From a virus (taxonomy: Duplodnaviria > Caudoviricetes), in the IMG/VR virus record IMGVR_UViG_3300032053_000109, positions 1 to 52,165 of that record: 52,165 nucleotides of DNA; one strand, given 5' to 3'. Numbering within the stretch: the first letter of the stretch is position 1; every line of letters begins with the position of its first letter. The notes beneath the pieces are model-generated. The model was not told where the DNA came from and searched no databases. It saw only the letters and a program-made list of their open reading frames with translations. The position numbers were made by a program, and so were the translations under genes. Positions 18,751 through 52,165 of this stretch are shown in pieces.

Positions 18751-18762
18751 GAGGACGAAAAA

Positions 18763-19844: not shown

Positions 19845-19917
19845 TTAAATTATTTTTAAAATACCCATTTACTTTAAGCATTTATTGTCTTATGATATTA
19901 TAGAGGTGATATATTAA

Positions 19918-21879: not shown

Positions 21880-21893
21880 AGGAGGAAGAATTT

Positions 21894-33983: not shown

Positions 33984-34430
33984 CTAAACTGCTGGTTCAA
34001 CTTGAGCATCACCAAGGATACAAGCAATACCATAAGTTATAGTATTTGTTACCGCAGCAGTAACGGAAGCATAGATTTTGATGAATCTATTAAGCCCAGA
34101 AAGGTTGATTACTTTATCAGTGCTTGTAGTTGCTGCAGAAGTTGGCAACAAACTAAACGTAAAGGTCGTGCTGATTGCACCTGATATAGTAGCAGAAGTT
34201 ACAAGAGTATAAACACCAGTTGCTACATCAGCAGATTGGTATAGAGTACAATTGATGTTGAAGGTTCCACCTGCTGTGGCACAAATGCCCTGTAGGTTGA
34301 ATAATGCGGTATTAAACCCCTTTCTATCAATTGCCACACTTGTTGCTACAGCTGTTGTTGCTGCAGTGTATGTTCCCACGAGACAAGCTCTATCAACTAA
34401 CTGGTCTGTCATTTTCGATTTCATGTACAT
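33984..34430 (-). CDS. Putative capsid decoration protein (Thr/Ala/Ser-rich)
   Basis: Directly after capsid gene; IDRKGF and RFIKI motifs; strong RBS. Confidence 0.65.
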   Translation of the reverse strand: MYMKSKMTDQLVDRACLVGTYTAATTAVATSVAIDRKGFNTALFNLQGICATAGGTFNINCTLYQSADVATGVYTLVTSATISGAISTTFTFSLLPTSAATTSTDKVINLSGLNRFIKIYASVTAAVTNTITYGIACILGDAQVEPAV

Positions 34431-34498
34431 GTTTTCTTCCTCCTTTTATTTTTGATAAGATTAAGAGCACCCCTCAGGATGCTCGCCTACATTACTAA

Positions 34499-36869: not shown

Positions 36870-36880
36870 GATATACCTCC

Positions 36881-37285
36881 TTAGATTCCCTCGAACTCTT
36901 GCACTATGCAATTTACAGTTATAGTAGCAGTAGCACTTGAACTTAGTAGAAAAGCTGCTACATTGGAATTTCCTGTAAATAATCCCCTTAATCTAGTATG
37001 TATTGCTCCCACCGATAGTCCTTTAGATATTGCAACTCCTGGAATGGTAATACTTGCACTGATATCACCATAGAAAGTAGAACCATTTATGGTTGAGATG
37101 GCTCTTATATCGGCTGAAATGTTACCAGTGCAATTGGTTGTTAGTATAACCTCATGCATCCAGGTAGTAGTTCCTGCTGAAGCTGGCATACTTAAAGATA
37201 GAGTAAGAGCTGCTGTTGCGGTTGTTCCCGCACTAAAAGTAACCGTTCCAGAACATATTATGTTCAACCTGCCTTGTCTTAACAT
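36881..37285 (-). CDS. Putative virion protein, Ser/Thr/Ala-rich
   Basis: In head module; beta-rich, few charged residues. Confidence 0.6.
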   Translation of the reverse strand: MLRQGRLNIICSGTVTFSAGTTATAALTLSLSMPASAGTTTWMHEVILTTNCTGNISADIRAISTINGSTFYGDISASITIPGVAISKGLSVGAIHTRLRGLFTGNSNVAAFLLSSSATATITVNCIVQEFEGI

Positions 37286-37303
37286 GTTATCCCCCCTTAT
37301 AAT

Positions 37304-38758
37304 TTAGTTTGCTACTAATATGATTTCAAAACCACCCGAAATTGCTGCTGAAGTAACACCCACAGCAGTTGCTTGCACCGTTAGTTCAATATCGGTTCTC
37401 TCCAATAACTTTTCTGGAGCAAAGTAATTATGTTGAAACTTTGAAGTTCCAGTATCTGAGATAGCATCTGAATGTTTCACTCTAAATACTTTATCAGGTT
37501 CTCTGGTATCTAAATTAATTACATAATTTGAACTCTTACTTGCACCCGAGGTTGAGGCATAGAAGCTAACTAAATAACCAGTGTACCCCAGAGGTATAGT
37601 ATAAACAGCCATTTCCGTTTGCTCATATCCTGGATGTATGACCAACCTTATCTTGGTTTTGTCAGTAGGAACTCCCGCGGTTAGTGCCGTATTAACATAT
37701 ACAACAGTATGACCTACAAGGGGTGTTCCAGTTGCATTATACGCTCTATATACTCTATATAGAGGAGTACCTAATGCAACTCTTGTTTGCCCATTTAGAG
37801 TAGCAGTCTGTACTACTTCTGTGCCATCTGCAGTTTGACCGGTGATACTAATAATCTCAGTATCGGTTGCATTAGACGAGCTAATACTATCAATATTAGC
37901 ACTCGTACTATAAATATATCTCATTAACTCCCATGCTTCACCGTCTTCTGCACCATCCCAAATGGTGACTTCATTATCCGAGGTATCAAAGTCAAAAGCC
38001 TTGCCAAACTTATGTATAAAATTTGTTCCCACAACCTGACCTCTTGCAATTGCTAATCCACTCTCTGCATCTGTCACTCTTAAATTATTAGAGGGAGTAG
38101 ATGTTATGGGAGTAAATGTTGTTCCATTATTGGCAGTTAGCACAGACTTAACTAACTCAGCGTCATCATCAGAAGATATTGAATCGCCAATACGATGACT
38201 AGATGGCTTTACATAATTGGGCTTCAATATAGTTTGAAGTGTTACAACAGTACTTCCTAAGATACCATTCACAAGTCTTATCCTAAAATACCTGGCTGCA
38301 CATTGAAAACTAAATGTTTTATCAGTTCCAATTGCAATAGTGTAGGTATCTCCAGTATACCAAGTATTATTATCGGTCGAAAAATCCATATAAAAAGTAA
38401 TAGCTCTAGCTACTGTTGCAATAAATACTTGAATTACGCCATGATTGATAACTTCCTCGGCAGTGCCAGTGAAAGTACCCCCAGCAGATAGTGTCCCCAC
38501 ATAACTATTGGGGGTGGATATATGTCCTGGGGTTACTGTTACTAACCCATATGAACCATCAGCTATTACAACATCAGCAGTATTAGTTCCATTTGATATT
38601 TTCACAGAGGCTGGATTGGATGGTGAGAATGCCTCATTTCCCGATGAATCCTGCAATGTAACTTTTCTAGCTCCATGTAGATTAACCCCTATTACTGTTT
38701 CTGCTGCAGAGTTCATCCATTTAGGACTTGCCTGAGCAAACCTATCAAGTTCCCCCAT
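37304..38758 (-). CDS. Putative virion (head fibre/decoration) protein
   Basis: 484 aa beta-rich, between portal and protease; ARYFRIRLVNG, HKFG, MAVYTIP motifs. Confidence 0.6.
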   Translation of the reverse strand: MGELDRFAQASPKWMNSAAETVIGVNLHGARKVTLQDSSGNEAFSPSNPASVKISNGTNTADVVIADGSYGLVTVTPGHISTPNSYVGTLSAGGTFTGTAEEVINHGVIQVFIATVARAITFYMDFSTDNNTWYTGDTYTIAIGTDKTFSFQCAARYFRIRLVNGILGSTVVTLQTILKPNYVKPSSHRIGDSISSDDDAELVKSVLTANNGTTFTPITSTPSNNLRVTDAESGLAIARGQVVGTNFIHKFGKAFDFDTSDNEVTIWDGAEDGEAWELMRYIYSTSANIDSISSSNATDTEIISITGQTADGTEVVQTATLNGQTRVALGTPLYRVYRAYNATGTPLVGHTVVYVNTALTAGVPTDKTKIRLVIHPGYEQTEMAVYTIPLGYTGYLVSFYASTSGASKSSNYVINLDTREPDKVFRVKHSDAISDTGTSKFQHNYFAPEKLLERTDIELTVQATAVGVTSAAISGGFEIILVAN

Positions 38759-38906
38759 TACCTCCCTCCTTCCATCGCCCGTCGATTAATTTTTTTGCTT
38801 TAATTTCAACCACCTCAAAATGCCTTTTTAGGGCAGTTCTGTAAGATGTAACAATAGTATTTAATTCTTGTTGCCAGCTCTCTAGTTTGACTTTATTAAC
38901 ATCCAT
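38745..38906 (-). CDS. Small hypothetical protein (53 aa, not in ORF track)
   Basis: MDVNKVKLESWQQELNTIVTSYRTALKRHFEVVEIKAKK...; RBS AAGGAG. Confidence 0.5.
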   Translation of the reverse strand: MDVNKVKLESWQQELNTIVTSYRTALKRHFEVVEIKAKKLIDGRWKEGGNGGT

Positions 38907-38936
38907 TGTTTTAGCTCCTTAGTTTAAATTTTGGCA

Positions 38937-38965
38937 TTAAAAAAACGCCTCTACGGACGTTTTTA
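38937..38965 (-). terminator. Terminator-like hairpin after portal gene
   Basis: Minus strand AAAACGTC-cgtaga-GGCGTTTT then TTT. Confidence 0.55.
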
Positions 38966-38973
38966 CCATATTT

Positions 38974-40983
38974 TTAGCCTTCTTCATCTATCACAGGTAA
39001 TAAAGTACATCTACAATTTATTACTTCGCTTGCAGGTCCACTTGCTCCTGGATACATCAACCCATTGCTAAAAGGTTTTGTGATATCTCTAACCTCTCTA
39101 TTAATAGCACCATGGCTATCTCTTGTTCTACTGTCCGAGGTTGCCAACCATTCTTTTTGTTTGACCTTAGCGCCCTTGTAAGTTTCAAACGTGCCAGCAC
39201 TAACAGTATTGTGTGTTTCAGTTCGTGCTATCATATTTGCTCTTGATTTTGATGCTGTGTCAAATACTTCTCTGATTCTTTTTCTAATCTGAACAATGCC
39301 TTCTGTTGCGGCTATTCCTACAGATATAGTTTTTCTTAGCTGTTCCTTGGTTGTATCATTTATCCCTTTGACCTCTTCGGCTCCTTGCTTATCAACCCAA
39401 TCTAGAAACGCAGGGTTAAGCAACTCGAAATTTACTCCAAACTGATAAGCTTCATTGACTGTATTATAACCCTTCTTGAAACTTTCCAACCATAAAGGAG
39501 TTAATACATCTTCGAGTTTTTTATCTTCTTCATCCCAGTTTATGGGTGTCTCTAGAGTTTTAGTCTCTTTTATAGATGATAGTACTCGCTGTTCTTGACC
39601 TAGAAAGAATTTTTGTAGGGAGGATATAAATTTTTGTTCTCCTGATGATGCCGCCTTGTCTAATGTCCCCCACAGTGAATCTCTCTTAGACAAGGCTTTC
39701 TGGTTTTTTATTTCTGGGGGTTTAGCTTCAGGAGTTTTTGGTCTATTTGCAGCAATCTCTTCAGGGATAGACAAGCCATCAACTGGTACTGCAGTCATGT
39801 TTGAAGGTATGTACAAAATCTTTCCCCTACCATTCGGAAGTTCCTTATATGCATTAGCAAGTCTCCACTCATCCACAGTTAGAGTTCCTCTGGATATTCC
39901 TTCTCCCGCTTTTTTAAGAGCAAACTCAAGGTCCTCGGGTACGATATTCTCATACTCAAAAGTTTCGCCCTTTCCAAAATCGGGTAATAACTGACGGGTG
40001 ATTGTATCTGCAATAAAACGTAATTCTTTTCTTAATACATTCTTGGTGTATAGATAATAGGCAGCATCAATGGTAGCACGATTGGAGTTTTCTAATATAC
40101 CAAATATCTCAGGCGGTATACTAAAATGTTGATTTGTGGTATCTCTAAGGTATTTGCGAGATTCTACAAAATCCATCTCCTTAGTAGTTTCCTTCAATAC
40201 TTGTATCTTAGCATCCCATCCTAGCCAAGCCATCTTACCATTGTTATTATAGCCACCATACTTCTGTTGCCATTCTTCTCTTATCCTATCAAGAGTATTT
40301 TCATCTGCTCCAGGAGCCATACCAACACCTTCTGGAATAGCACCATTATAAAAAAACTTTTTGCTGTATTTCGCCATGTACTCATCTGTTTCTATCTCGT
40401 CACCAATTGCATTAAGCCTTCCAACACCTCTAAGATAAGGATTGGTAATATCTAACTTCTTGAAATACACCATGTCCTCGGGTAACACAGGCGTGGGCGA
40501 AGCATCCATATTACCCATCGGTTGAACCCAAAAACAATTTTGAGTTTTCGAGGGTATTCTTACAACCCAGTTTGGTGGGATGGGCCATAGTTCTGTTGGT
40601 ACTCCTAATCCGTTTCTTTCCTTAAGCCAAAATGCTTCCCCACCAGGCAATAATAAGTAAACCTGAGTAATGTAAAATAAGCCATATCTCGTTATTGCAT
40701 TATCTGAACAGGGATTATTTAGTAACAATTCAAGAAGGTGGTTTTCTAGCTTATTATCTTTGAGTAGGATGTTAAAATTTGAACTCGCTACATCACTTGC
40801 AATCTGATGTACCGGATTCATCCTTGGGCTGAGGTTATACATGTTCATCCAAGCCAAGGTTGAGTTCTTAGGAGGTTCTCCATACAAAGGAATAAACCTA
40901 GATAGTGACTGAGTAACACTTGTGGTATTTCCTCTTAGAATTGTTTTAACTAAACCTAAACGTTCTTTCCAACCAATCTTCAT
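38974..40983 (-). CDS. Portal protein (HK97 family) fused to Mu gpF/SPP1 gp7-like head morphogenesis domain
   Basis: LLNNP, GEAFW, FFYNGAIP, FSIPP, TVDEWR; C-terminal IARTET, KEWLAT.D.RTRDSH, INCRC. Confidence 0.9.
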   Translation of the reverse strand: MKIGWKERLGLVKTILRGNTTSVTQSLSRFIPLYGEPPKNSTLAWMNMYNLSPRMNPVHQIASDVASSNFNILLKDNKLENHLLELLLNNPCSDNAITRYGLFYITQVYLLLPGGEAFWLKERNGLGVPTELWPIPPNWVVRIPSKTQNCFWVQPMGNMDASPTPVLPEDMVYFKKLDITNPYLRGVGRLNAIGDEIETDEYMAKYSKKFFYNGAIPEGVGMAPGADENTLDRIREEWQQKYGGYNNNGKMAWLGWDAKIQVLKETTKEMDFVESRKYLRDTTNQHFSIPPEIFGILENSNRATIDAAYYLYTKNVLRKELRFIADTITRQLLPDFGKGETFEYENIVPEDLEFALKKAGEGISRGTLTVDEWRLANAYKELPNGRGKILYIPSNMTAVPVDGLSIPEEIAANRPKTPEAKPPEIKNQKALSKRDSLWGTLDKAASSGEQKFISSLQKFFLGQEQRVLSSIKETKTLETPINWDEEDKKLEDVLTPLWLESFKKGYNTVNEAYQFGVNFELLNPAFLDWVDKQGAEEVKGINDTTKEQLRKTISVGIAATEGIVQIRKRIREVFDTASKSRANMIARTETHNTVSAGTFETYKGAKVKQKEWLATSDSRTRDSHGAINREVRDITKPFSNGLMYPGASGPASEVINCRCTLLPVIDEEG

Positions 40984-40999
40984 CTTTTCACCTCCTTAA

Positions 41000-42556
41000 T
41001 TATTTTATAATAAATGCAGGCCTTTTCAACTTACAAATAAGCATCTGCAAAGCATCTGGAGCATCATCATGAGCACAAGTCTTAGAATAGTCTTTTACCT
41101 GCTCATTGAATGAAACATTAATTCTATTAAAGAATACTTTTTCACCCGTTATATCTGGCTCTATTTGCATTATACGTATATACTTATTCTCATGTGCATG
41201 TTTATGTGTCACAGTTCGGTAACAATCATTTGCAATTAACTTCTTTACTAACTCATCTTTAAGCAAATCCTTAAATAGGTTACTCTCTAATATGATTTCA
41301 TCTATTTCAGGATAATCTTTTACGAATCTTACCACCTCATCCATTAATTGATACGGATTATGTAAAGCAAGTTTACCCTCTTTGATGAAGTAACCCCCAT
41401 TAAGTTCTCCTCCACAGCAATAACCTGAGGAATCTCCCTTACCCTCGGATGGGTCAATACTTAACTTGAGCGTTTTAATAGCCTCAGGAAATTCGTCATA
41501 GAACATAAGATTCTGAAACTTCTTGTCTTTACTATTTCTAGGCTCATTCTGTGCTTCTTTCCAGAATGCATCTTCACCCCAAGCCTCTCGTTCTAACATG
41601 ATATTATAATAAGAGCCAGGATAACCCATTTTCTTTTTGGGAAACCTACCAGCCCAAAGAATTTTAACCCCTTTTAGAAGTTCTCTACGATGTTCAAGGT
41701 AGAAGTCATATGCATCATCCATTCTATCTTCATTGTAGATGTTACGGTAGATTTTTCTCCATTCTTCCCATAAAGTTTCATTCTCCGGAAAAGTTATTAC
41801 ACATTTATAAAAAACGGTTCTCCAAGAGGGTTCCTTGGTAACTCGTGCTAATAAAGAGTCATCGCTTAGCAGAGTTCCTATATAAAAATAGTCAGTCTTG
41901 TAATATCCCAGACGTCCTATCTCACTACGAAAACAATCATCAAGTTTCTTTCTTAGTGACTCAGATTCTATAACCGTTTTGTCCTCTAGATCATCCAGAA
42001 TAATTAAGTCAGGTCGGCTATCTTTATTGATTCCTCGAATACCCGATTTCCATCCTGTGCAGGCTATCCATACGCCATTTTTTAGGCATATATTATCGGC
42101 ATTCCATACAGTTCCTTTCTGTGTTCCAAAGTCCTCTACAATCTCTATCTTGCATAAAGCTTTCTTTGTTTTTTCGAGAAAATTTGCTGCGGTATCACCG
42201 TTAGCAGAGATAAAGAAAATAAACTTCTTCTTCTTGTATAAGGCTGCCCACGTAGGAACTGCGAAAGTTGATAAGGTTGATTTTCCGTGCTCACGTGGAG
42301 CCACCACAGCAATCTTCTCTTGTGAATTGGTCTGAACGGACTTAGTTAGTATTTCAAGTATATCTCGGGCATAATCTCCAAACTCTCTTTCAAATTGATC
42401 GGTTAGATAGGCTTTACAAAAATACTCGGGATCTATTTCTCCCAACATCCTTCTAAGGCCATTTGGACCTGTTAGAGGATAATTACTTAGTAATAACTCA
42501 GTATCATTACCAAAATGCTTATAGGCTGTTGCTATTAATAGACCTCTATCTAACAT
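41000..42556 (-). CDS. terL: Terminase large subunit
   Basis: APREHGKST, RPDLIILDDLE, YIGT, SIDPS, HDDAPDA. Confidence 0.92.
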   Translation of the reverse strand: MLDRGLLIATAYKHFGNDTELLLSNYPLTGPNGLRRMLGEIDPEYFCKAYLTDQFEREFGDYARDILEILTKSVQTNSQEKIAVVAPREHGKSTLSTFAVPTWAALYKKKKFIFFISANGDTAANFLEKTKKALCKIEIVEDFGTQKGTVWNADNICLKNGVWIACTGWKSGIRGINKDSRPDLIILDDLEDKTVIESESLRKKLDDCFRSEIGRLGYYKTDYFYIGTLLSDDSLLARVTKEPSWRTVFYKCVITFPENETLWEEWRKIYRNIYNEDRMDDAYDFYLEHRRELLKGVKILWAGRFPKKKMGYPGSYYNIMLEREAWGEDAFWKEAQNEPRNSKDKKFQNLMFYDEFPEAIKTLKLSIDPSEGKGDSSGYCCGGELNGGYFIKEGKLALHNPYQLMDEVVRFVKDYPEIDEIILESNLFKDLLKDELVKKLIANDCYRTVTHKHAHENKYIRIMQIEPDITGEKVFFNRINVSFNEQVKDYSKTCAHDDAPDALQMLICKLKRPAFIIK

Positions 42557-44315
42557 TCAAATCATCCTTTGCCTTGAGTAGACTTTGTAGGCATATATTT
42601 GTTATATCTCCAACATATGAATACCACTTACTCATTTTATAGATTTTCATAACATACTGCATTTCAAGCGAGAGATGGATTGATTGTACTATATGCATTA
42701 GAAGCAGTTGGAATGTGTGATTATAGTTATCAATTATTTTAGCTCTTGGAGCCATCAGTTCTGCAATTGGAAGGTCTTCATCCAGTTTAGACCCCTCAAT
42801 GCATAAATCTATAATATCTTTTACATCTCTAATAGTATTATCCATTAGAATTTTAAGCTTTTCAATATCATCTTCAGCAGAAGTAAAGTTTTTAAGCTCC
42901 TCTTTAATTATGTCTAGAGGGTTAAATACTTCAGTTACTGCTAAATCTATAATTTTTTGTAACGGTTCAACTCGAGTTCCTGAGATATAAGCACCACCTT
43001 CAGTACAGTTATACACAGTACCGGAGTAGTGAGCTATATCCACCTCATGGGCTTTTAAGAAAGATACCCACCCATCATTGGTTTTTACTAGGTCCGTGAG
43101 ATTTCCTTTTACTTCTAATTCATTTTCACCCGCACTACTAAATGGAACTGGAGTAGCATGAGTCTCACCATCCTCACCATAGGCTAGGTCTTGGCCAACC
43201 ATTATAATGGGGTCACAGCCAAGAGCCTTTGCTATAGTGAAAGCCATATTAGAGGAGGACAATCTTATATCAAGTATACCTCTATCAATTCCTAACCACT
43301 TAAAGTGATCAAAATTACGGTATACAATAATCTTGGGACCATTATAAGATTGATATACATGATTAAATAATACAGGACAGGCAGCCATATATACATCCTT
43401 ACATTCTTCCTCAGGTATTTCATCAAAGAACTGTTGTACGGCATGTTCACGTTCTAGCGATGTAACCATATGGGGCTTAATACCGTTTGCTAATAGCAGT
43501 TTCAATGATGCATCCACAGATAATATTAATGCCTTATCTTCTAGGCCTTTAAGCAGGTGTATATTCTTCTTAAGACTAGGACCTGTTGCAACTATTATTG
43601 CGGGCTTACCCTTAAACTTATCATATAACAAATTAATTCCAGGATTATTTGCTATCTCTAGAACATTATCAAACATATTTTCTACACCAATAAGACTATC
43701 CTCAGGACAGTTTCCAAAGTTATGTAGATTATCCCATGAGGCTTCAAAAAACTTACCACATGCATTCATATAATAGGCTTTACTTATTTTTAATGGTATT
43801 TCAGTTACCAGAGGTTGACAACTGCTTGTAAATAACATATCTTTAAGGTTGTTCATAAAAAAGTCTCTATATACTAAATATAAATCTTCTTCAGGAATAC
43901 CAACAATGAAATGTAATGCTGGAGATAATACCATTTCAGATATATCACTTGCATTCATAGCAGCCACAAAGAGCTCGATGTCCCTCTCAATGATAATAGC
44001 ACCTTGAGTATTAAATTCAGCCGCATATTTATGGAAGAAGTATTGAACCTCATACCCTAGACCAAACCCTAGAAATATTGGCATCCTTACATTTTCTAAC
44101 TTTAAGCCCTTCCACTGAGCCTCAAAATATTCGGTCATGACTCCTCTATACCAGGGTTCATTCAAGATTAGATGCTTCACATTGGGAGCACATCCAGGGC
44201 TTTGGAATAACTCATAGTTAACTATCCTAGTGTGTTTCACCCTCTCGGCTAATTCGGGGTATCTTATCTGGAGTGCTTGAAAATTCTTTTCATAAATGTT
44301 CCTATCTGTTAGCAT
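42546..44315 (-). CDS. maf: Maf-family (motility-associated factor, DUF115/MptE-like) nonulosonate glycosyltransferase
   Basis: KNFQAL, LGFGLGY, IIERD, AIIVATGPSLKKNI, VDAS, GIKPH, LGCDPIIMVGQDLAY, YNCTEGGAYI.GT. Confidence 0.85.
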   Translation of the reverse strand: MLTDRNIYEKNFQALQIRYPELAERVKHTRIVNYELFQSPGCAPNVKHLILNEPWYRGVMTEYFEAQWKGLKLENVRMPIFLGFGLGYEVQYFFHKYAAEFNTQGAIIIERDIELFVAAMNASDISEMVLSPALHFIVGIPEEDLYLVYRDFFMNNLKDMLFTSSCQPLVTEIPLKISKAYYMNACGKFFEASWDNLHNFGNCPEDSLIGVENMFDNVLEIANNPGINLLYDKFKGKPAIIVATGPSLKKNIHLLKGLEDKALILSVDASLKLLLANGIKPHMVTSLEREHAVQQFFDEIPEEECKDVYMAACPVLFNHVYQSYNGPKIIVYRNFDHFKWLGIDRGILDIRLSSSNMAFTIAKALGCDPIIMVGQDLAYGEDGETHATPVPFSSAGENELEVKGNLTDLVKTNDGWVSFLKAHEVDIAHYSGTVYNCTEGGAYISGTRVEPLQKIIDLAVTEVFNPLDIIKEELKNFTSAEDDIEKLKILMDNTIRDVKDIIDLCIEGSKLDEDLPIAELMAPRAKIIDNYNHTFQLLLMHIVQSIHLSLEMQYVMKIYKMSKWYSYVGDITNICLQSLLKAKDDLNVR

Positions 44316-44319
44316 TTAC

Positions 44320-44475
44320 TCAGCTCCTTTTTATCTTAATCTTATTAAAATAGAATCCATCTTTAGTAGCTTCCTTTAATTTGTAATTCTCTCCTTCAAT
44401 GGTCCATACAGTATCATTCTTTATATATCCTAACTCTTCTAGTTCTTGGTTGGTAAAATATATTATGTTATCTAT
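44320..44475 (-). CDS. Possible small ORF (51 aa, ATA start)
   Basis: Open frame IDNIIYFTNQELEELGYIKNDTVWTIEGENYKLKEATKDGFYFNKIKIKRS* fills the pseB-maf gap; non-canonical start. Confidence 0.35.
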   Translation of the reverse strand: MDNIIYFTNQELEELGYIKNDTVWTIEGENYKLKEATKDGFYFNKIKIKRS

Positions 44476-45326
44476 GATATCAACCCCTCTATAGATTTTT
44501 TTATTTCATCAACTGTTAAAAACCAAGGATTTGTACCAGAGTCGAACTGTTGACCCATGGTCTCATGTATTTTCTCACCCTCACGAATACCTATAATATG
44601 ATATGGCATGTCAAAAGCATCTGCAAGGTCTGTGATTAATACCGAGGGCAAAAAGGGCATAAAGGTTTCATTTCCATACATCTGATTAAGGGATTCGGTA
44701 ACAAACTCTAGAACATCCTTCATATCAAACCAAAAGCGAGTCATATCAGGATGAGTAATTGGTAGTGATGTAGCTCCAGATTTAATTAGCTTATTCCAAA
44801 CTGGAACAATAGAGCCATTCGAGCCAACAACATTCCCATAGCGACACACAGAAAAGCGAATATCATCATTTGCGGCATACTTATTTGCATTCAACCACAA
44901 CCTCTCTGCCATGGCTTTACTAGTGCCATAGGTGTTAATGGGAGCTACTGCTTTATCAGTACTAATAAGTAAACATTTCCAAACTTTATTCTCAATACAG
45001 GCATCTACAACATTCTGAGTTCCTACTACGTTTGTTAACATGGCCTCTGACGGATTATATTCACAGGCATCCAGGTCTTTTATGGCTGCTGCATGAACTA
45101 TTATGTCAACACCTTTAGTGGCCCTTAAAAGCCTATCCTTGTCTCTTACATCGCCAATGAACCAACGCATGTTTGAGGGATTTCCAAGTTCATCTCTGAG
45201 TTCTTTCTGTTTTAACCAACAACGAGAAAAACATATGATTTTTTTAGTTTCCTCATCCTTTAGTAAATGCTTTATGTAAGCACTTCCAAAGCTTCCTGTG
45301 CCACCAGTTATCAAAATCGAAGTCAT
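44472..45326 (-). CDS. pseB: UDP-N-acetylglucosamine 4,6-dehydratase (PseB-like)
   Basis: ITGGTGSFG, FIGDVRD, HAAAIK, EYNP, STDKAV.P.N.YG.SK, RYGNVVGS.GS, MTRFW, GIREGEKIHE. Confidence 0.9.
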   Translation of the reverse strand: MTSILITGGTGSFGSAYIKHLLKDEETKKIICFSRCWLKQKELRDELGNPSNMRWFIGDVRDKDRLLRATKGVDIIVHAAAIKDLDACEYNPSEAMLTNVVGTQNVVDACIENKVWKCLLISTDKAVAPINTYGTSKAMAERLWLNANKYAANDDIRFSVCRYGNVVGSNGSIVPVWNKLIKSGATSLPITHPDMTRFWFDMKDVLEFVTESLNQMYGNETFMPFLPSVLITDLADAFDMPYHIIGIREGEKIHETMGQQFDSGTNPWFLTVDEIKKSIEGLIS

Positions 45327-45919
45327 TATAACACCTCCTTAAGCATTTCAGGAGTTCTTGCGAATGGACCTGCATCAAGTCCTGTACTATTCTTAAGCTT
45401 ATAATGGCATTCGTAGAAGTTTGGATAATATTCTTTGAATAACTGCCAATCGCAAGTATGATCTGATATTGCCATGCTAAGTTTCTTTGCTCCGAACTTG
45501 AAGTACTCTTCTATCTTAGCAGGATAGTGACTAATACAGGCAAAATTGATATTGCCTTTATCACTACCCGATACATACACAGGAAACTTCCTTGGAATCT
45601 CACCGATAAGCCAGTCCAAGTTGCGATTATTTGCTATTTTAACAAATGGTACATCAAACCCCAATAGAAAATCCAAACTTACCAAGTCAAACACCGAGGA
45701 TGTTGTTTTATATCCGTGTAATTTTGCATATTCATAGGCCTTTTTGAATACGTCATATCTAAGGGGTATATTTTCACCAGCTCTTACAAATAACTGATGT
45801 TTGAATACCACCTCATGCTTAAGAGTATCAATTTCTCTTATGGAATCAATCATTTTCTTAAGATATAACCAATCGTTCTTATGAGTGTTAGCACTCACAT
45901 CTAATATAATTCTACTCAT
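45326..45919 (-). CDS. Short NeuB/PseI-family nonulosonate synthase
   Basis: IILDVSAN.H, FKHQLF, SSVFD, FVKIA, CISHYPA, ISDHT, YECHYKL, GLD. Confidence 0.75.
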   Translation of the reverse strand: MSRIILDVSANTHKNDWLYLKKMIDSIREIDTLKHEVVFKHQLFVRAGENIPLRYDVFKKAYEYAKLHGYKTTSSVFDLVSLDFLLGFDVPFVKIANNRNLDWLIGEIPRKFPVYVSGSDKGNINFACISHYPAKIEEYFKFGAKKLSMAISDHTCDWQLFKEYYPNFYECHYKLKNSTGLDAGPFARTPEMLKEVL

Positions 45920-46452
45920 TTTATCAGCTCCTTAACTGGGGTATCCCACCCCTTTAATAATATGGGTTTTTCTGAACTTCTGTGGTAGCTACCTTTACCC
46001 TCTTGAGGGAGTCCTTGTATACGATTCATTCTTAATACGGGCCATGTTTGTATAAATATATCTTCCATGTATTTGGTTAATATTTTATAACTTGTTGCTA
46101 AAGTTTCTGTCTCTATATCCAGGGGAATCTCTGTTCTTATTAGAATATCTCCTGTGTCAAGACCTTCATCTATAAGATGTATTGTGTAACCCTTGGGAGT
46201 ATTATCAACCCAACTCCAATAGTTAGGGTCAACTCCTCGGTTCCACGGAAGATAAGACATATGAAGATTAATTGCTGGAACCAAATCTAGAACATCTTTT
46301 TTTAGGATATGTCTATACCCATAACTTACTATCCAATCAAATCCCCTAACAAAATTAGCATCAACCTTATCGATTGTTTGAACTACCTCGTCATCTACTC
46401 CTTCAAAAGCTTTAATTAAGCTCTGATGTGGGCTCAAGAGAAGTACTCTCAT
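45916..46452 (-). CDS. Formyltransferase (Fmt-like sugar N-formyltransferase)
   Basis: SYGYRHIL, INLHMSYLPWNRG..PN, TIHLIDEGLDTGDI. Confidence 0.88.
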   Translation of the reverse strand: MRVLLLSPHQSLIKAFEGVDDEVVQTIDKVDANFVRGFDWIVSYGYRHILKKDVLDLVPAINLHMSYLPWNRGVDPNYWSWVDNTPKGYTIHLIDEGLDTGDILIRTEIPLDIETETLATSYKILTKYMEDIFIQTWPVLRMNRIQGLPQEGKGSYHRSSEKPILLKGWDTPVKELIK

Positions 46453-46954
46453 TAGTTACCTCAACTCCTCGAATAAAAGTAAATAGCGTACTATCATGAT
46501 ATTTCCCCCCATGGAATTTCCTTAAGGGTATAGATACTCCCATACCATTGTTCATACGGGATGTTTGTTCCCATAATTTTAAGTAGGGACTGCATTCATA
46601 AACCTCAGAAAATACACTTACAAGATTTATATGATCAAAAGCTATTTCAAGTAGGGTTTTTAGAATATTAGGTATTAAATTTGCCTTATCAGGGTCCGTT
46701 ATTAGACTAATCTCAGCAATACGATTGTCCCACTGTATATTTTCTAGTCCTACCATTCCACAGAGGCTTTTGTCGCCAGATATTACAGCCCAGAACCTAC
46801 AATTGCTATCCCTGTTAGATATCTTATTATTATAAAATTCTAATTGGGATTGCTGAGTTAATCCATATGAGGTTCTTAGTATGCTCAATTGCTCGTTTCT
46901 CCATAATCTTATTTGGTTCATGTCAATTGATTCAAGAATTCTAAATTTAATCAC
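46412..46954 (-). CDS. GNAT N-acetyltransferase (PseH-like; start revised to GTG 46954)
   Basis: IRLWRN, GMVGLENIQWDNRIAEISL, AFDHINL..V..EVY. Confidence 0.78.
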   Translation of the reverse strand: MIKFRILESIDMNQIRLWRNEQLSILRTSYGLTQQSQLEFYNNKISNRDSNCRFWAVISGDKSLCGMVGLENIQWDNRIAEISLITDPDKANLIPNILKTLLEIAFDHINLVSVFSEVYECSPYLKLWEQTSRMNNGMGVSIPLRKFHGGKYHDSTLFTFIRGVEVTNESTSLEPTSELN

Positions 46955-46984
46955 TTTATCAGCTCCTATTCTCAGCTCCAAAAC

Positions 46985-47037
46985 AAAAAGAAAGGCGTAA
47001 AGAATCACGGAGCTGTTGTGAAAAGCATCTTTACGCC
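46985..47037 (-). promoter_or_regulatory. Large-loop hairpin/terminator with anti-Shine-Dalgarno in loop
   Basis: GGCGTAAAGA-24 nt-TCTTTACGCC then TTTCTTTTT; loop contains CAGCTCC. Confidence 0.55.
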
Positions 47038-47049
47038 AAACTAACTAAA

Positions 47050-47553
47050 TTAGGATTTTTTCTTTGACCGTAGTCTTTTTATATGCTCTCTAACCTCTTC
47101 TATATCAAGGCTCTGAGTATCTATATGAGAAGTAACTTCTATTTTATCAGTCCATCCAAAATTCTTCAATCCAAAGATTGCTACGGAGGGATGTATGGTG
47201 CCTTCAACAGCTCCATTTTCATAGTAGTATTCAACCATGTCTTTAGCTCTTCTTACTTCTTGAAAGTAATCATCTCTCTGTTCATAATCCAGAAGTACCG
47301 CTCTGCTTGTTCCAAGATATAAAGCTAATCCAGTAACGGTAGGCCTCTGTCTTAATCTCATAAGAGGCTTTCCCTTTCTATCGAATTTCTGAACCCATTC
47401 TATGGTTCCATCCTTTAGCTTTACTTCTTCCCAATGTTCTTCCCAACAACTCTCGAAGTATCTATCAATGCATCTTCTAAGATGTGTTGCTGACTCAAAC
47501 ATTAACTTACGGCCTACCTTCCGAGGTGGCCTAGGTTGTTTTTGTACTGACAT
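47050..47553 (-). CDS. terS: Terminase small subunit (P22 gp3-like)
   Basis: GRKLMF, IDRYF, PTVTGLALYLG.SR..LLDY, IFGLKNFGWTDK. Confidence 0.85.
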   Translation of the reverse strand: MSVQKQPRPPRKVGRKLMFESATHLRRCIDRYFESCWEEHWEEVKLKDGTIEWVQKFDRKGKPLMRLRQRPTVTGLALYLGTSRAVLLDYEQRDDYFQEVRRAKDMVEYYYENGAVEGTIHPSVAIFGLKNFGWTDKIEVTSHIDTQSLDIEEVREHIKRLRSKKKS

Positions 47554-47566
47554 GTCTTCACCCCTT

Positions 47567-48619
47567 TCAATAAGGCTTCTTTTGCCAAGCTAATGATATA
47601 TCACTATTTACCTTTTCACATACTGGAGCTAGGTTAGGTGGATATAACAAACCTCTAAATAAAGGCATCTGATAGATTGGTGTTATATAAGCAGACTTGA
47701 AGTTAAAATCATCTCTTATATACCTACTTAATTCCTTATCCTTCCATGCATATCTATAAAAGCTGTGTTCACAGTCTTCCCTAACTTTTATAGGAAAATA
47801 TTTTGAATCTTCCTGATGTTTCTCTACTATATCTTTTAGTTTCTTCAATTGCTCTCTTGCTATTGCTGCACTGAGTTCTGGCATCCTCAAATTCATACCT
47901 ATCATAGTTTGATTTGTATGAGAATAAGGAACACCCTTTGATTCTAGGTCATTTAGTACTGCTTCTGCATGATTCATTGATAGCCTTAATCTTAACGCTA
48001 ATTCATCATTATCAGTTACGCAGATTCCGCCCTCTCCACAGTGAATGTGTTTATGACGATTCAAACTGAATACTCCTATATCACCAAGTGTTCCCGCGTA
48101 TTTACCTTTATACTTAGCTCCTGGAGCTTGTGCGGCATCTTCTATTACATAAATCTTGTGTCCGTACTTTTTGGAATATTCTTCCGCTATTCTATTGATC
48201 TCCTGAGCAGCATATGGCTGACCAAAAAGGTCTACTACGATGATCGCCTTAGTACTTTCTGTTATTTTCTTCTCTACGTCCTTTGGGTCAAGACAAAAAT
48301 AATCTGGCTCAATATCAGCAAAGACGGGTATAGCCCCGAAATGTAAAGGAATAGTAGCGGAGATTGTCATGGAATAAGGCGTGACTATTACTTCGTCGAA
48401 AGGTTCGATGCCTATAGCGTTAAGAGCCATCCAAAGTCCGCTACTATTACTATTACAAGCAATTGAATTCCTAACCTTAAAATACCTAGACCATTCAAAT
48501 TCAAGGGATTGTACTTCTATGCCACCCATGAAGTTTCTTGACCAATTTCCTTGGTAATCACTTAGAATACCTCGGTCCATAACCCTTAATACTGCTTCTC
48601 TTTCTTCTATTCCTATCAT
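47567..48619 (-). CDS. DegT/DnrJ PLP-dependent sugar aminotransferase (PseC/SpsC-like)
   Basis: PVFADI, VDLFGQ, IEDAAQA, FSLNRHKHIHCGEGG, GMNLRM. Confidence 0.9.
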   Translation of the reverse strand: MIGIEEREAVLRVMDRGILSDYQGNWSRNFMGGIEVQSLEFEWSRYFKVRNSIACNSNSSGLWMALNAIGIEPFDEVIVTPYSMTISATIPLHFGAIPVFADIEPDYFCLDPKDVEKKITESTKAIIVVDLFGQPYAAQEINRIAEEYSKKYGHKIYVIEDAAQAPGAKYKGKYAGTLGDIGVFSLNRHKHIHCGEGGICVTDNDELALRLRLSMNHAEAVLNDLESKGVPYSHTNQTMIGMNLRMPELSAAIAREQLKKLKDIVEKHQEDSKYFPIKVREDCEHSFYRYAWKDKELSRYIRDDFNFKSAYITPIYQMPLFRGLLYPPNLAPVCEKVNSDISLAWQKKPY

Positions 48620-49443
48620 TTTATCAGCTCCTCTAGTATTACTAATGCTTTTAAAGCATCTTTATCAGTGCATCTTAGTCTTTCTTCTCCTGCTAGAAAA
48701 TTATAAGCATTCTCTACCACATATCGAGTACTATAATCAAAGTAACTAGGTACTGGCATGTCAAGTATTCTCTGCTCCTGCCAAAAGTGTTTCTGAAAGA
48801 ATAATTGTATATTCCAAACCCTATAATCGCAATACTTGAACATAACATTATCCTTGATTCCATTTAGTTTGAGAGATTCATCAGCTTTTCCATCTAGGAA
48901 CCAACTCATAAAATCAATTGCATGGGTTCCAGTATGAAGGTCTCCTCTATTATAGAGTATTTGATAAGTTTCAAGGTTTCCGAATTCTCCTGAGTCGTAT
49001 CTGTTCTTAAGATGTATTAATTCAGGAATAAACCTTCGAGTATAATTTACTAAGATAGGAATGCCATTCTCTGAATATAAATTAACAATCTTCTGTGCCT
49101 GTTCTGCAGTTGAGCATAAAGGCTTTTCACAGATAACAAGTTTAGGTTTATTATAACCAGGAGTGGCAATCTGTATTAACTGTTCATAATGAGTATGGTC
49201 TGGAGTGGTTATGACTACAATATCCATTTTTAATTGTTCGAGTGCATATCTAGGTGTTGTAGCAACCCCTCCCCAAAGATGAAAAGCATCAAAAGCCTTT
49301 TTATTTACATTATCATAGAAATATAACTCTGCTTCTCGCTCTTTAAAAGCGTGTGCAAAGGATATTACTTTGTGCTCATTTTGCGAACCTATTGCGTCCG
49401 CTAGAACTCCTTGGTTTCCCGCTCCTATTATCAGTACTTTCAT
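48616..49443 (-). CDS. Gfo/Idh/MocA-family oxidoreductase
   Basis: IIGAG, TPDHTH, CEKP, VNYTRRF, HTGTHAID. Confidence 0.85.
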   Translation of the reverse strand: MKVLIIGAGNQGVLADAIGSQNEHKVISFAHAFKEREAELYFYDNVNKKAFDAFHLWGGVATTPRYALEQLKMDIVVITTPDHTHYEQLIQIATPGYNKPKLVICEKPLCSTAEQAQKIVNLYSENGIPILVNYTRRFIPELIHLKNRYDSGEFGNLETYQILYNRGDLHTGTHAIDFMSWFLDGKADESLKLNGIKDNVMFKYCDYRVWNIQLFFQKHFWQEQRILDMPVPSYFDYSTRYVVENAYNFLAGEERLRCTDKDALKALVILEELIK

Positions 49444-50230
49444 CTTTGTTCAGCTCCTTTTGTGAATAGTAATCATTTAATTCTGATAGGTAGTCTTTTC
49501 TTTCTATCTTCGCCACCTTCTCGTATATATAGGGATAAACATCCAATAGGTTAATAACTTCTTCACAGGTAAGGTCTAGCGAGTAGTCTTTTCCTGCTGC
49601 ATATATCCATTTTATTAACTCATAATCCTCGGGAGTATCTAATGTTACCTCTAGGTCAGGCCTACGTTGTGAGTTTGGAGCCACCCAATTAAGCGGTATA
49701 TATTTTCCCACAGTCTTTGGATTCAGGTAGAACCATGTGCTAACGTGCTGCCTATCGATAGGATTATCAACCTCTTCATTAGCTCTTTCCAGAATATCAG
49801 TGTTGAATACTCTAACATCATATCCTCGTGGGAAGGTTCTTTCTCCGATATTTGATGTAATATCTGAACCTTTTCCACTCCCATGTAGTTTTAACAGCGT
49901 AGAAAGGTGATTCCAGTCGATCAACGGACAATCGGCAGTAATTTCCACTACTATATCTACTTCGAACTTTCTTGCTGCCTCTAGTACTCTTAAAAGGACA
50001 TCCTGTTCGCTACCTCGATATACCTTGCAACCGAGTTTGTTACATAGCTCTTCAATTGGGTCATCTGTTTCATTGGTTGTGGTTGCTACAATTACTTCAT
50101 CTAACATCTTACATTCTTTTACTCTCTCGATGACTCGTTGTAATACGGGTCTTCCCTCCAGGTCCAATAAGACCTTTCCAGGAAGTCGAGTACTTGTCAT
50201 CCTCGCTTGTATTATTGCTCCTCTTACCAA
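49376..50230 (-). CDS. Acylneuraminate cytidylyltransferase (SpsF/PseF-like)
   Basis: AIIQARMTSTRLPGKVL, RGSEQDVL.R, ITADCPLID, TLDTPEDY. Confidence 0.9.
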   Translation of the reverse strand: MVRGAIIQARMTSTRLPGKVLLDLEGRPVLQRVIERVKECKMLDEVIVATTTNETDDPIEELCNKLGCKVYRGSEQDVLLRVLEAARKFEVDIVVEITADCPLIDWNHLSTLLKLHGSGKGSDITSNIGERTFPRGYDVRVFNTDILERANEEVDNPIDRQHVSTWFYLNPKTVGKYIPLNWVAPNSQRRPDLEVTLDTPEDYELIKWIYAAGKDYSLDLTCEEVINLLDVYPYIYEKVAKIERKDYLSELNDYYSQKELNKDESTDNRSGKPRSSSGRNRFAK

Positions 50231-50248
50231 TTTCTATCAGCTCCTTTA

Positions 50249-51427
50249 CTAGATTAGGTAATTACATTCATTTATAAAATCATCATAGATTCGCTTATAC
50301 TCATCTTTCTCGCGAATCCATGGGTTATTCATCCATTGGTTATATTTGAAATGGTTGCTTTGTCCTAGTACTGCCCATTTTTTAAGAGTCTTGGGTTCTG
50401 TATAACCATATTTTTTTGCTTCATCTGCCATAATAGTATCAGGCAGTGGCATAAAAAAGGTAGTACTAAGCCTAAAGTTAGGGTTGATTTGTTTTACCTT
50501 GCGAATATATTTAATGGTCTCTTTAATATCCTCAGGTCCCTCTCCAGGGCATCCAAAAATAACACCTGAAGCCATTATCATATTATGTTTACTCATTATC
50601 TTAGCACATTCTTCAAATTCTATGAGATGGTTCTTTCCTTTTCTCATCTGTTGAACTATCCTATCACTACCAGATTCAAGGCCTATAGTTAATTGCTTAA
50701 GTCCAGTACTTACCAGATCAAGAATGTCGGGTGATTTTACTATTTCCATAGCTCTTGCATCAGCTATCCAGTCAAGGTTGTGTTTCATCATTATTTGGGA
50801 CAGGTCCTTTACTCTCTGAGGCCTGGTGAATACCGTCGCATCAAAAAATACACATTCTTTATATGGGTACATTTTCATAAGATGGTCAATGTCATCTTGT
50901 ACTTTCTTAATAGGAAGTTCAATCCACTGCCTCTTATTTTTGGTAGAGCAAAAGGTACATACTCCAGGACAACTATAGGTACTAACATAAATAAACCTTT
51001 TAGAATCTGGATTAATATAGTCTTCAGGGTTAACTAATTCCCAAGGCATCCTGTGTTCTCCACATTCATAATAACCAGGTAGAATTCTATCAACATGGCG
51101 TGATTGTAAAGTTTGTTCAGGAAGTGCATTGATATGAGGTCCTCCCCATGTGATTGATATATCGGGATTATGTTTTTTTAGAGCTTTACTAACCTCGTAT
51201 GCTCGAGTTACTTGATAGCCAGTATATACAGTTATCATGATTCTATCTGCTTCATAAGCTAATATTTCATCCACTGGGTTAGATACTAACCTATCATCTA
51301 TTATCTTTACCTCTAATCCCTGTGCTATTAAGGCTGAAGCCACAGATAACGCCGATAAAGGCATATAATGAAAGTCTTTATGGGGTTCTAGTTTCGGGTG
51401 GAAAATTAGTATCTTCTTTTTTATCAT
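50249..51427 (-). CDS. B12-binding radical SAM protein
   Basis: PLSA, WGGPH, CPGVCTFC (CxxxCxxC), IGLESGS, IFGCPGE, PLPDT. Confidence 0.88.
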   Translation of the reverse strand: MIKKKILIFHPKLEPHKDFHYMPLSALSVASALIAQGLEVKIIDDRLVSNPVDEILAYEADRIMITVYTGYQVTRAYEVSKALKKHNPDISITWGGPHINALPEQTLQSRHVDRILPGYYECGEHRMPWELVNPEDYINPDSKRFIYVSTYSCPGVCTFCSTKNKRQWIELPIKKVQDDIDHLMKMYPYKECVFFDATVFTRPQRVKDLSQIMMKHNLDWIADARAMEIVKSPDILDLVSTGLKQLTIGLESGSDRIVQQMRKGKNHLIEFEECAKIMSKHNMIMASGVIFGCPGEGPEDIKETIKYIRKVKQINPNFRLSTTFFMPLPDTIMADEAKKYGYTEPKTLKKWAVLGQSNHFKYNQWMNNPWIREKDEYKRIYDDFINECNYLI

Positions 51428-52165
51428 TGTACTCAGCTCCTATGTAGTTATTCATCCTTTCTTTGTGGGTACTTTCGAAGGATTCTCTATCTAGAAAATA
51501 TTCACTAACTATTTTATAATGGTTAGGGTTCCCAAATCCGGATTTGAAGAAAGCTATATCTTTTTCTTTCTGAGAAGAATAGTTTATTAGAGTGTTATAA
51601 GCCATATGGCCCAATACATACATAGGGATTTGTTTATTCCTTAAGTATTCTAGTATGGCGTTCTGAAGATAATGGCTTACGTTGAATTCCTTATACTCAG
51701 GTACTACTCCACAGAGAAAATAGTAAGCTTCTTTTGAATCATACGTAATAAGTGTGAATCCACAGATGCCGCCACTAAAGGAATATGCAAGGAAGAGGGA
51801 TGCATGACCTTCCTTAATCCATTTTTTATACTCATCAAAGGTTTCTGGAGGTCGGGTTATTTTACCAGCTATCACATAATAGAGATCTCTTATTTCATCT
51901 AATAATTGATCTCCCCCATTTGATACATAATTGGTTGAATCTACAATATGGTAATATAACTCTCTTTTAGCGGAGTTGATAAGTGATTTGTAACTCTTAC
52001 GTATGTTATTTACTGAGGTATCAGTGATGCAGATAGGTATTGCATAATTTATAAAGCCAGGTACAAAGCCTTCAATAGCGATTCTCTTAATTCCTATATC
52101 ACGGGCGTAATTAACCAACAAATTGGTAACCTTTCCAAGTAATCTGGTATCTTCACAGATGATTC
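51378..52165 (-). CDS. GNAT/FemAB-like acyltransferase, C-terminal part (frame open to window end)
   Basis: IRKSYKSLIN, AYY, SHYLQ..I, KDIAFFKSGFG; frame stays open upstream (IICEDTRLLGKVTNLL) to base 52165. Confidence 0.75.
   Translation of the reverse strand, partial: IICEDTRLLGKVTNLLVNYARDIGIKRIAIEGFVPGFINYAIPICITDTSVNNIRKSYKSLINSAKRELYYHIVDSTNYVSNGGDQLLDEIRDLYYVIAGKITRPPETFDEYKKWIKEGHASLFLAYSFSGGICGFTLITYDSKEAYYFLCGVVPEYKEFNVSHYLQNAILEYLRNKQIPMYVLGHMAYNTLINYSSQKEKDIAFFKSGFGNPNHYKIVSEYFLDRESFESTHKERMNNYIGAEYNDKKEDTNFPPETRTP

Follow-up and report, generated by a model that had tools for sequence, protein, structure and literature searches.

A Maf glycosyltransferase and nonulosonate pathway genes interleaved with the terminase genes of an uncultured phage: a candidate virion glycosylation system

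Results

Sugar and packaging genes share one co-directional array

The IMG/VR virus record IMGVR_UViG_3300032053_000109, a tailed-phage sequence (Caudoviricetes) that we analysed whole and call the window (52,165 bp, linear, 87% complete by CheckV estimate), carries a cassette of putative nonulosonate sugar genes placed around and between its terminase genes, among them one for a glycosyltransferase of the Maf (motility-associated factor) family. The minus strand from 52163 to 22674 forms a single long co-directional array. Its first 13 genes (38974-52163), all on that strand and defined by a list of open reading frames (ORFs) and by family searches, hold the cassette and the start of the packaging module (Table 1), in the order that an earlier note, made from the sequence alone, had claimed for them. 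Beyond the portal-MuF fusion the array continues with genes for a protease, an HK97-type capsid protein, connector proteins, a tail tube with an immunoglobulin (Ig)-like domain, a tape measure, tail-tip proteins and an amidase endolysin, and terS, terL, portal, protease and major capsid protein stand in the standard order of a tailed-phage packaging and head module. Replication and nucleotide genes occupy the plus strand at 9811-22325. Among the annotated ORFs of the window, which is a lytic-looking siphovirus genome probably with a Bacillota host, none was recognised as an integrase or lysogeny gene.

Many of the genes overlap, as the earlier note had said, that of Maf with terL included. From the ORF coordinates the overlaps are 11 nt for Maf/terL, 4 nt each for Gfo/DegT and PseJ/NeuB, 1 nt for NeuB/PseB, 41 nt for GNAT/PseJ and 50 nt for the FemAB-like and radical SAM genes. 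The same note's claim of a ribosome-binding site shared by seven genes was borne out: AGGAGCTG occurs 11 times in the window, on the minus strand every time, and 7 of the 11 sites lie at 44321-51441, each directly 5' of a cassette gene (1.29 copies are expected in the whole window, and 11 were reached in 0 of 100 shuffles). Terminator-like sites in 36000-52165 showed no excess (8 versus 8.8 expected), and a promoter scan was likewise at chance level.

Table 1. Cassette genes, packaging genes and candidate acceptor genes of the window
Feature	Coordinates	Strand	Supporting matches and remarks
FemAB-like GNAT acyl/aminoacyl-transferase, first cassette gene	51378-52163	-	TIGR04421 5.7e-18; cut by contig end
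B12-binding radical SAM enzyme	50249-51427	-	Radical_SAM 4.8e-15; B12-binding 9.8e-13
CMP-ulosonate cytidylyltransferase (PseF/KdsB family)	49376-50230	-	CTP_transf_3 2.2e-32, 113 bits
Gfo/Idh/MocA oxidoreductase	48616-49443	-	PF01408 6.9e-13
DegT-family sugar aminotransferase, candidate PseC step	47567-48619	-	PF01041 9.7e-66
Small terminase subunit (terS), amid sugar genes	47050-47553	-	GP3_package 5.1e-18; phrog_606 7.7e-24; same place in relatives
GNAT N-acetyltransferase, candidate PseH step	46412-47008	-	Acetyltransf_4 6.7e-6
PseJ-type sugar N-formyltransferase, full length	45916-46452	-	PDB 6ci2 'formyltransferase PseJ' 7.2e-51
Minimal NeuB/PseI-fold ulosonic acid synthase, 197 aa, TIM barrel only	45326-45919	-	PF03102 2.7e-6
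PseB-type inverting UDP-GlcNAc 4,6-dehydratase	44472-45326	-	TIGR03589 3.1e-103; PDB 2gn4 1.8e-78
Maf family nonulosonate glycosyltransferase	42546-44315	-	MptE-like 2.6e-42; Maf_flag10_N 2.4e-7; 11-nt overlap with terL
Large terminase subunit (terL)	41000-42556	-	phrog_38 8.5e-76
Portal fused to MuF-like domain	38974-40983	-	Phage_portal 4.7e-47; Phage_Mu_F 2.8e-16
Two Ser/Thr-rich proteins between portal and protease, candidate acceptors	36881-38758	-	484 aa, 21.5% Ser+Thr; 134 aa, 26.9%
Major capsid protein, candidate acceptor	34499-35659	-	within 33984-35659 pair: phrog_617 7.9e-50, phrog_5707 3.1e-9
148-aa beta-sandwich protein after capsid gene, candidate acceptor	33984-34430	-	24.3% Ser+Thr
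Major tail protein (tail tube), candidate acceptor	31037-31933	-	phrog_88 4.1e-50; 24.5% Ser+Thr

Family assignments point to a pseudaminic-type sugar

Cytidine monophosphate (CMP)-pseudaminic acid is made from UDP-N-acetylglucosamine (UDP-GlcNAc) by PseB, PseC, PseH, PseG, PseI and PseF. The NCBIfam matches of the cassette proteins all fall under the curated equivalog cut-offs, and we therefore give scores together with cut-offs below. On the PseB model TIGR03589 the dehydratase reached 345 bits (cut-off 407.75), against 207 for FnlA and 51 for LegB, and its closest solved structure is Helicobacter pylori PseB/FlaA1 (2gn4). Since the PseB model is the best by far, the sugar would be of the pseudaminic rather than the legionaminic type.

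The PseH-or-PseJ step of this pathway is represented by a full-length PseJ homologue. The earlier note had recognised a formyltransferase, which can now be specified as PseJ-type: residues 2-177 align to residues 2-185 of 192 in 6ci2. PseJ is named as filling in the pathway to Pse5Ac7Fo in the available part of PMC11040635. Compared with PseJ itself (PDB 6ci2/6ci4), the phage protein matches over its full length, its substrate is a prediction only, and its gene is optional among relatives, being missing from some clade-A phages (L004, L014) and from a second lineage described below (clade B); it is therefore taken for a tailoring enzyme. The other acyltransferase had been called PseH-like. It is a GNAT protein, and its PseH likeness is weak (2.1e-5, 24.6 bits, cut-off 93.1). 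Its true start is probably about 18 codons 3' of the GTG at 47008, as suggested by a copy of AGGAGCTG at 46960-46967 and by a clade-B homologue (G009) that aligns only from residue 20.

For the DegT aminotransferase the top-scoring NCBIfam model was PseC (163 bits, cut-off 423.5), closely followed by a LegC-type model (143); its top PDB matches were other sugar aminotransferases, PseC not being among them. The cytidylyltransferase found 6oew as its top PDB match (8.4e-38) with KdsB next, and scored 33.8 bits on the PseF model (cut-off 205.7), below KdsB-type models.

Three further enzymes may decorate the product. The Gfo/Idh/MocA oxidoreductase would supply a tailoring step. The best NCBIfam models for the B12 radical SAM protein were HpnJ and a PhpK-type B12 radical SAM enzyme, all far under their cut-offs, and it is a probable methyltransferase-type tailoring enzyme; homologues 50-54% identical occur in the related genomes G006, G007 and G008 and none in G009. 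The FemAB-like protein matched Pfam GNAT at E 0.0092, under the cut-off, and had no sequence match in the PDB. In G006 a 286-aa homologue opens the cassette, and the window is therefore short of only about 25 codons at the 5' end of this gene.

The synthase is a minimal, barrel-only enzyme

Judged by its homologues, the 197-aa synthase is not a fragment. Those in 18 other phage loci are 209-237 aa long and share 43 invariant columns, and a profile of the 19 phage sequences matches Campylobacter jejuni PseI (8h2c, 1.1e-9) through the CxSxYP, SDH and ExH stretches. The window protein scored 23 bits on the PseI model (cut-off 340). Its AlphaFold2 model (pLDDT 93) retrieved only NeuB, PseI and SpsE structures among the ten best Foldseek matches in the PDB (TMq 0.68-0.82), and consists of the barrel alone, the SAF/antifreeze-like domain being absent. 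The phage enzyme thus has the TIM-barrel fold and the PseI motif stretches in common with NeuB/PseI/SpsE synthases (PDB 1xuu, 8h2c, 3g8r), whereas it is about 140 residues shorter, with trimmed loops and no C-terminal SAF/antifreeze-like domain.

More than 1,400 database relatives of this short NeuB were found at E<=0.001. The best 120, which we inspected, are 203-242 aa long and lie on contigs no longer than 60,088 bp, and none of 64 cellular Maf loci had a match. These observations fit a phage-specific enzyme with a large family of its own.

The Maf protein resembles those of flagellated Bacillota

The predicted glycosyltransferase is a Maf of the ~600-aa type, scoring 144.9 bits on PF01973 (cut-off 34.6) and 30.9 bits on PF20157 (cut-off 23.5). 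It matched the PseD model NF050051 over residues 6-560 (1.6e-48, 165.8 bits, cut-off 670) and, weakly, the Maf structure 5mu5 in the PDB. Its predicted function is the transfer of a nonulosonate from its CMP donor to Ser/Thr. The nearest cellular Mafs, 38-46% identical, belong to Dethiobacter, Syntrophomonadaceae, Pelotomaculum and other Bacillota. A quick maximum-likelihood tree was built from 59 rows, namely the window and 58 of 91 loci (27 from IMG/VR, the others cellular), leaving out the truncated L013, L015, L017 and L025, the duplicate L028 and 28 cellular loci that were short or distant. In it both phage Maf groups formed one clade each (SH-aLRT 100) among Bacillota Mafs. Recent capture from a host is rejected on these separate clades of the quick tree together with the lack of the short NeuB in cellular Maf loci.

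The cassette shares much with the flagellin O-glycosylation islands of Campylobacter, Aeromonas, Clostridium and Magnetospirillum (whose Maf is PDB 5mu5). In both, Maf is full length, with an N-terminal Maf domain and an MptE-like core, and is accompanied by PseB, a DegT aminotransferase, a GNAT protein, a NeuB-fold synthase and a cytidylyltransferase. The differences are that the present set is phage-encoded, is interleaved with terS and terL, and has no flagellin, no PseG and a 197-aa synthase without the SAF domain. Its parts come from known families (Maf, PseB, PseJ, the NeuB fold, DegT), and it would work in the manner of a flagellin island minus flagellin and PseG.

Flagellin and PseG are absent

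Flagellin (PF00669 Flagellin_N, E<=1) was found in none of five phage records searched, the window included, in agreement with the earlier note. PseG was likewise missing from all five: TIGR03590 at E<=1 gave no match in G000, G006, G007, G008 or G009, of which G009 is rated 100% complete and G006 has terminal repeats, and the same search was positive in 9 of 14 control genomes. General family scans found no PseG family member among the window ORFs. Of the pseudaminic acid pathway that the earlier note had proposed, PseB stands and the PseH step has a PseJ homologue as its alternative; PseG is absent, the synthase is minimal and the cytidylyltransferase scores nearer the KdsB type. The missing PseG, the SAF-less synthase and the scores under NCBIfam cut-offs together mean that the product may not be pseudaminic acid and that the pathway may need the host; the PseG step would be supplied either by a host enzyme or by an unrecognised phage enzyme.

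A set that may work only together with a host pathway is also what would be expected of an auxiliary metabolic module, which would shift the host pool of CMP-nonulosonate for use in capsule, S-layer or spore surface, with Maf as an accessory and the virion not the target. In line with this, pseI appears in the abbreviation list of a phage auxiliary-gene table in a review (PMC6359870, as far as its available text goes), and nonulosonates also occur on non-flagellar structures such as the Bacillus subtilis spore surface, according to the accessible part of PMC13317340. However, Maf is the most constant member of the cassette (9 of 9 genomes) and is predicted to be translationally coupled to terL, the full set is conserved across an apparently lytic phage clade, and the synthase is a phage-specific form rather than a recent host copy. 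We consider the metabolic explanation improbable.

Gene order is conserved across a phage clade

A single-protein query with Maf found nothing in IMG/VR; an alignment-based query found 27 loci. The gene order of the window is repeated at 17 of these 27 independent loci, and at 15 of the 17 Maf directly precedes the terL, portal, protease and capsid genes, the other two stopping at Maf. This is the outcome of the viral-database search for maf, neuB and pseB beside terminase that the earlier note had proposed. Because the order recurs in this way, the region is neither captured host flank nor an assembly chimera, the latter having been named in that note as something that would overturn its proposal. 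By this synteny the cassette is an integrated phage module, as had been claimed, and is vertically inherited within the clade. Among close relatives with enough upstream sequence (major capsid protein at least 57% identical), Maf was found in all nine.

The cassette is missing from phages whose terL is 54-60% identical (L038-L040, L049 and L050), and a Maf profile had no match in five records searched (L038, L040, L043, L049 and L050), one of them 78.6 kb long. In this 78.6-kb record (G001, L069:4981-9498) four small ORFs (185, 109, 80 and 84 aa) take the place of the sugar genes between terS and terL. The lineage seems to have a hot spot for cargo here. In one close relative of the window (L006:5196-6436, +) two extra genes lie inside the sugar cassette, in the gap between terS and GNAT: one encodes a homologue (32% identity) of the window's 134-aa Ser/Thr-rich protein, a putative acceptor, and the other a protein of 241 aa that has a concanavalin-A-like/LamG lectin domain (9e-16).

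Among the 50,697 deposited phage genomes of INPHARED, megablast with 41000-52165 found no match and tblastn found none for Maf or the short NeuB; PseB-like genes of at most 41% identity occur in 26 records. PHROGs has no family for Maf, short NeuB, GNAT, cytidylyltransferase or the radical SAM protein.

The cassette recurs in two further lineages

A second lineage (clade B) carries a Maf 35-40% identical to that of the window. In its representative G009 (63.3 kb, rated 100% complete) the sugar genes are the sole gene set in common with the window. The clade-B order is replication genes, Maf, a short-chain dehydrogenase/reductase, Gfo, DegT, GNAT, amidase, a 382-aa protein, cytidylyltransferase, an ArpU/DUF1492-like regulator, GNAT, short NeuB and PseB, followed by terS/terL across the record ends; the cassette is thus again directly upstream of terS/terL. 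Additional conserved genes of clade B (L145-L148, for example L145:306-689 on the minus strand; L021:15883-18636) include an HNH endonuclease after PseB in seven genomes, an amidase-family protein (PF01425, 5.4e-69) and the 382-aa protein, also in seven genomes; the regulator is placed between the cytidylyltransferase and GNAT genes.

The third lineage, G016 (L278:10154-19384, L279:1-9745), has a cytidylyltransferase, DegT, a family 2 glycosyltransferase, a radical SAM-SPASM protein, a 314-aa NeuB and a 501-aa Maf, adjoining genes for ribonucleotide reductase, a TROVE-domain protein and a primase-helicase. The link of the cassette to packaging genes that the earlier note had drawn therefore holds in the window clade and clade B and fails in G016, where replication genes are the neighbours. 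Of nine Maf-bearing phage genomes, all nine encode Maf, DegT and the cytidylyltransferase; PseB, short NeuB and GNAT each occur in eight, and Gfo occurs in six.

Proximity to replication and nucleotide genes in clade B and G016 bears on the idea that Maf places a nonulosonate on phage DNA, on a hydroxymethylated pyrimidine, around the time of packaging, which would be a new DNA hypermodification. The Maf/terL overlap would suit such a target, as would three genes beside the polymerase in the window, for a thymidylate-synthase-fold protein, a dCMP deaminase and a dUTPase/MazG-like protein, and glycan hypermodification of phage DNA is known, as cited in the accessible text of PMC12619734. However, the thymidylate-synthase-fold family PF00303 occurs in one of nine Maf-bearing records, the window only, being absent from G006 (terminal repeats), G007, G008, G009 (100% complete), G011 (92%), G013, G014 and G016, so the hydroxymethyl base that this would need does not accompany the cassette. 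No Maf-family enzyme is known to use a nucleic acid as its acceptor. We disfavour this possibility as very improbable.

Within the window the thymidylate-synthase-fold, dUTPase_2/MazG-like and dCMP deaminase genes lie at 13452-14132 (+), 10793-11449 and 14135-14572, respectively, and the window record alone matched PF00303 among ten phage records searched, relatives G006-G008 included. The neighbouring family A DNA polymerase (14526-16940, +) has an N-terminal domain of the uracil-DNA glycosylase (UDG) superfamily (UDG 1.1e-31), followed by 3'-5' exonuclease and polymerase domains. In the portal fusion the MuF-like head-morphogenesis domain is at residues 548-661, and in some relatives (L016, L037) the portal match comes in two pieces.

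Relatives of terL occur in Evansella and Virgibacillus genomes and in one Eubacteriales metagenome-assembled genome. Together with the nearest cellular Mafs, which are from Bacillota, they suggest that the host is probably an anaerobic member of that phylum. The 64 cellular Maf loci contain PseB and cytidylyltransferase homologues, and their aminotransferases are only ~30% identical. Cassette contigs of this clade have been filed in public metagenome-assembled genomes as Promethearchaeota, Odinarchaeota, Sediminibacterium and Eubacteriales (L075, L078, P0029, P0049, P0058); they are phage contigs, probably misplaced by binning. Of the sequencing runs listed, two DNA runs carry the label sediment metagenome, and one of these may be where the present DNA comes from; no RNA run was among them.

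Candidate acceptors are rich in serine and threonine

Maf meets its acceptor in the cytoplasm and, in all characterised cases, modifies flagellin, according to the available part of PMC13317340. The acceptor might accordingly be a protein of the host, with its flagellin or some other surface protein the likeliest, that the phage re-glycosylates while it infects the cell; this could, for instance, keep competing flagellotropic phages from adsorbing, or the phage's own progeny from adsorbing to debris. The phage Mafs nest among those of flagellated Bacillota (Syntrophomonadaceae, Pelotomaculum, Dethiobacter), the cassette moves among phages whose virion genes are unrelated, as would suit a non-virion target, and the prophage nonulosonate-tailoring enzymes EpaA/EpaB alter a host surface glycan (PMC12053666, in its accessible text). 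Several points argue the other way. The annotated window ORFs offer no recognisable lysogeny functions, and a position in the packaging/head array is not one expressed in a lysogen; flagellin modified late would have little time to get into the filament; and most of the cassette would be redundant if the host already glycosylates its flagellin. Moreover, Maf diverges faster between lineages than the sugar enzymes do, with 37.5% identity between the first two lineages versus 55-60% for PseB, NeuB and DegT, which would fit adaptation to different acceptors. We regard a host acceptor as unlikely, although less so than the metabolic and DNA alternatives.

If instead the acceptors belong to the virion, the Ser/Thr-rich head and tail proteins are candidates. 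The 484-aa protein between portal and protease corresponds to phrog_8198, and neither it nor its 134-aa neighbour had a Pfam match; in close relatives this slot holds variable small ORFs with 17-35% Ser+Thr. The 148-aa post-capsid protein (AlphaFold2 model, pLDDT 77) resembled generic jelly-roll structures in the PDB and no known decoration protein, and the tail tube ends in an Ig-like Big_5 domain (7e-13, residues 191-296). A complex prediction for Maf with the 148-aa protein scored 0.00, which is no answer and counts neither way.

The earlier note had described the capsid and tail as Ser/Thr-rich. Their composition agrees, and is by itself not unusual. We compared the Ser+Thr fraction of this clade with that of Maf-less relatives, a contrast that amounts to essentially one evolutionary event: it was higher in the capsid protein (0.167 vs 0.120), connector (0.214 vs 0.139), post-capsid protein (0.231 vs 0.162) and tail tube (0.248 vs 0.198), and was not raised in portal (0.118 vs 0.111) or terL (0.096 vs 0.109). 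Small ORFs between the portal and capsid genes averaged 0.241, with 12 of 24 at 0.25 or more, against 0.120 and 0 of 21 in the outgroup, whose small ORFs are not like-for-like. In the second lineage a Ser/Thr-rich protein of 249-264 aa follows directly after the capsid gene in 4 of 4 Maf-bearing genomes that span the head region and was not detected in 25 outgroup loci.

Discussion

We propose that the cassette serves O-glycosylation of the virion with a pseudaminic-type sugar made by the phage itself and transferred by Maf. In this scheme PseB, the DegT aminotransferase and the GNAT or PseJ-type formyltransferase would turn UDP-GlcNAc into a 2,4-diamino-2,4,6-trideoxy-hexose, which the phage-specific minimal NeuB-fold synthase would join to phosphoenolpyruvate to give a pseudaminic-type nonulosonate. 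The cytidylyltransferase would activate this sugar, the Gfo/Idh/MocA, B12 radical SAM and FemAB-like enzymes may tailor it, and Maf would move it, in the cytoplasm, to Ser/Thr residues on exposed proteins of the phage's own head and/or tail while these accumulate. Of the explanations considered we find this the best, and would give it about an even chance of being right. The structure of the sugar, late expression and above all the identity of the acceptor are inferred.

Several observations weigh against virion glycosylation. Every characterised Maf acts on flagellin, as described in the accessible part of PMC13317340. On the side of the pathway, PseG is missing in all five records, the synthase has no SAF domain, and the PseH, PseC and PseF assignments are under NCBIfam cut-offs. 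The G016 cassette lies among replication and nucleotide genes and not beside terminase, and no non-sugar protein family is common to all Maf-bearing lineages across the nine genomes. Beyond the two limits of the Ser+Thr comparison given above, the second-lineage capsid protein is not enriched (0.131, n=8, vs 0.133, n=25), and the post-capsid Ser/Thr-rich proteins of the two lineages have no detectable homology (hhalign probability 3%). The virion coat that the earlier note had envisaged thus gains from the Ser+Thr enrichment in this clade, loses from the second-lineage capsid protein, and stays an inference.

Virion glycosylation has so far been described for actinobacteriophages and giant viruses. 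The mycobacteriophages of Freeman et al. (2023) reportedly use ordinary glycosyltransferases and host sugar donors. There, as here, glycosyltransferase genes are linked to structural genes; the differences are that the present phage encodes both a pathway for a nonulosonate donor and a transferase of the Maf type, and that modification of its virion is a prediction. Glycans on mycobacteriophage capsids and tail tubes act as a shield, as cited in the available text of PMC12619734. Phage-borne pseudaminic acid chemistry is also found in the prophage enzymes EpaA/EpaB of Acinetobacter baumannii (PMC12053666). Those, however, are two tailoring enzymes that turn host-made capsule pseudaminic acid into the 8-epimer in lysogenic conversion and not from a module among packaging genes, and the accessible part of that paper describes no synthase, cytidylyltransferase or Maf with them. 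The earlier note knew of no description of a phage Maf, and in the open-access literature we likewise found no paper on a phage-encoded Maf or on a nonulosonate on a virion; the SugarBase preprint has nothing on phage-encoded pathways.

Taken more broadly, the data raise the possibility, to which we give somewhat less than an even chance, that many uncultured phages infecting anaerobic Bacillota produce a tailored pseudaminic-type nonulosonate of their own, with a phage-specific, minimal SAF-less synthase and no canonical PseG, and have retargeted Maf to Ser/Thr-rich head and tail proteins, giving the virion an acidic, sialic-acid-like coat. The cassette is widespread, as the 27 IMG/VR Maf loci and the relatives of the short synthase indicate. 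If the proposal is confirmed, virion glycosylation would come to include a sialic-acid-like sugar that the phage makes for itself, in what would be the first nonulosonate-coated phage, and Maf would have its first non-flagellin acceptor. The minimal synthase and a PseG-less route would interest enzymologists and glyco-engineers. For the phages themselves, an acidic glycan coat could alter adsorption, aggregation, stability in sediment, and recognition by hosts and grazers.

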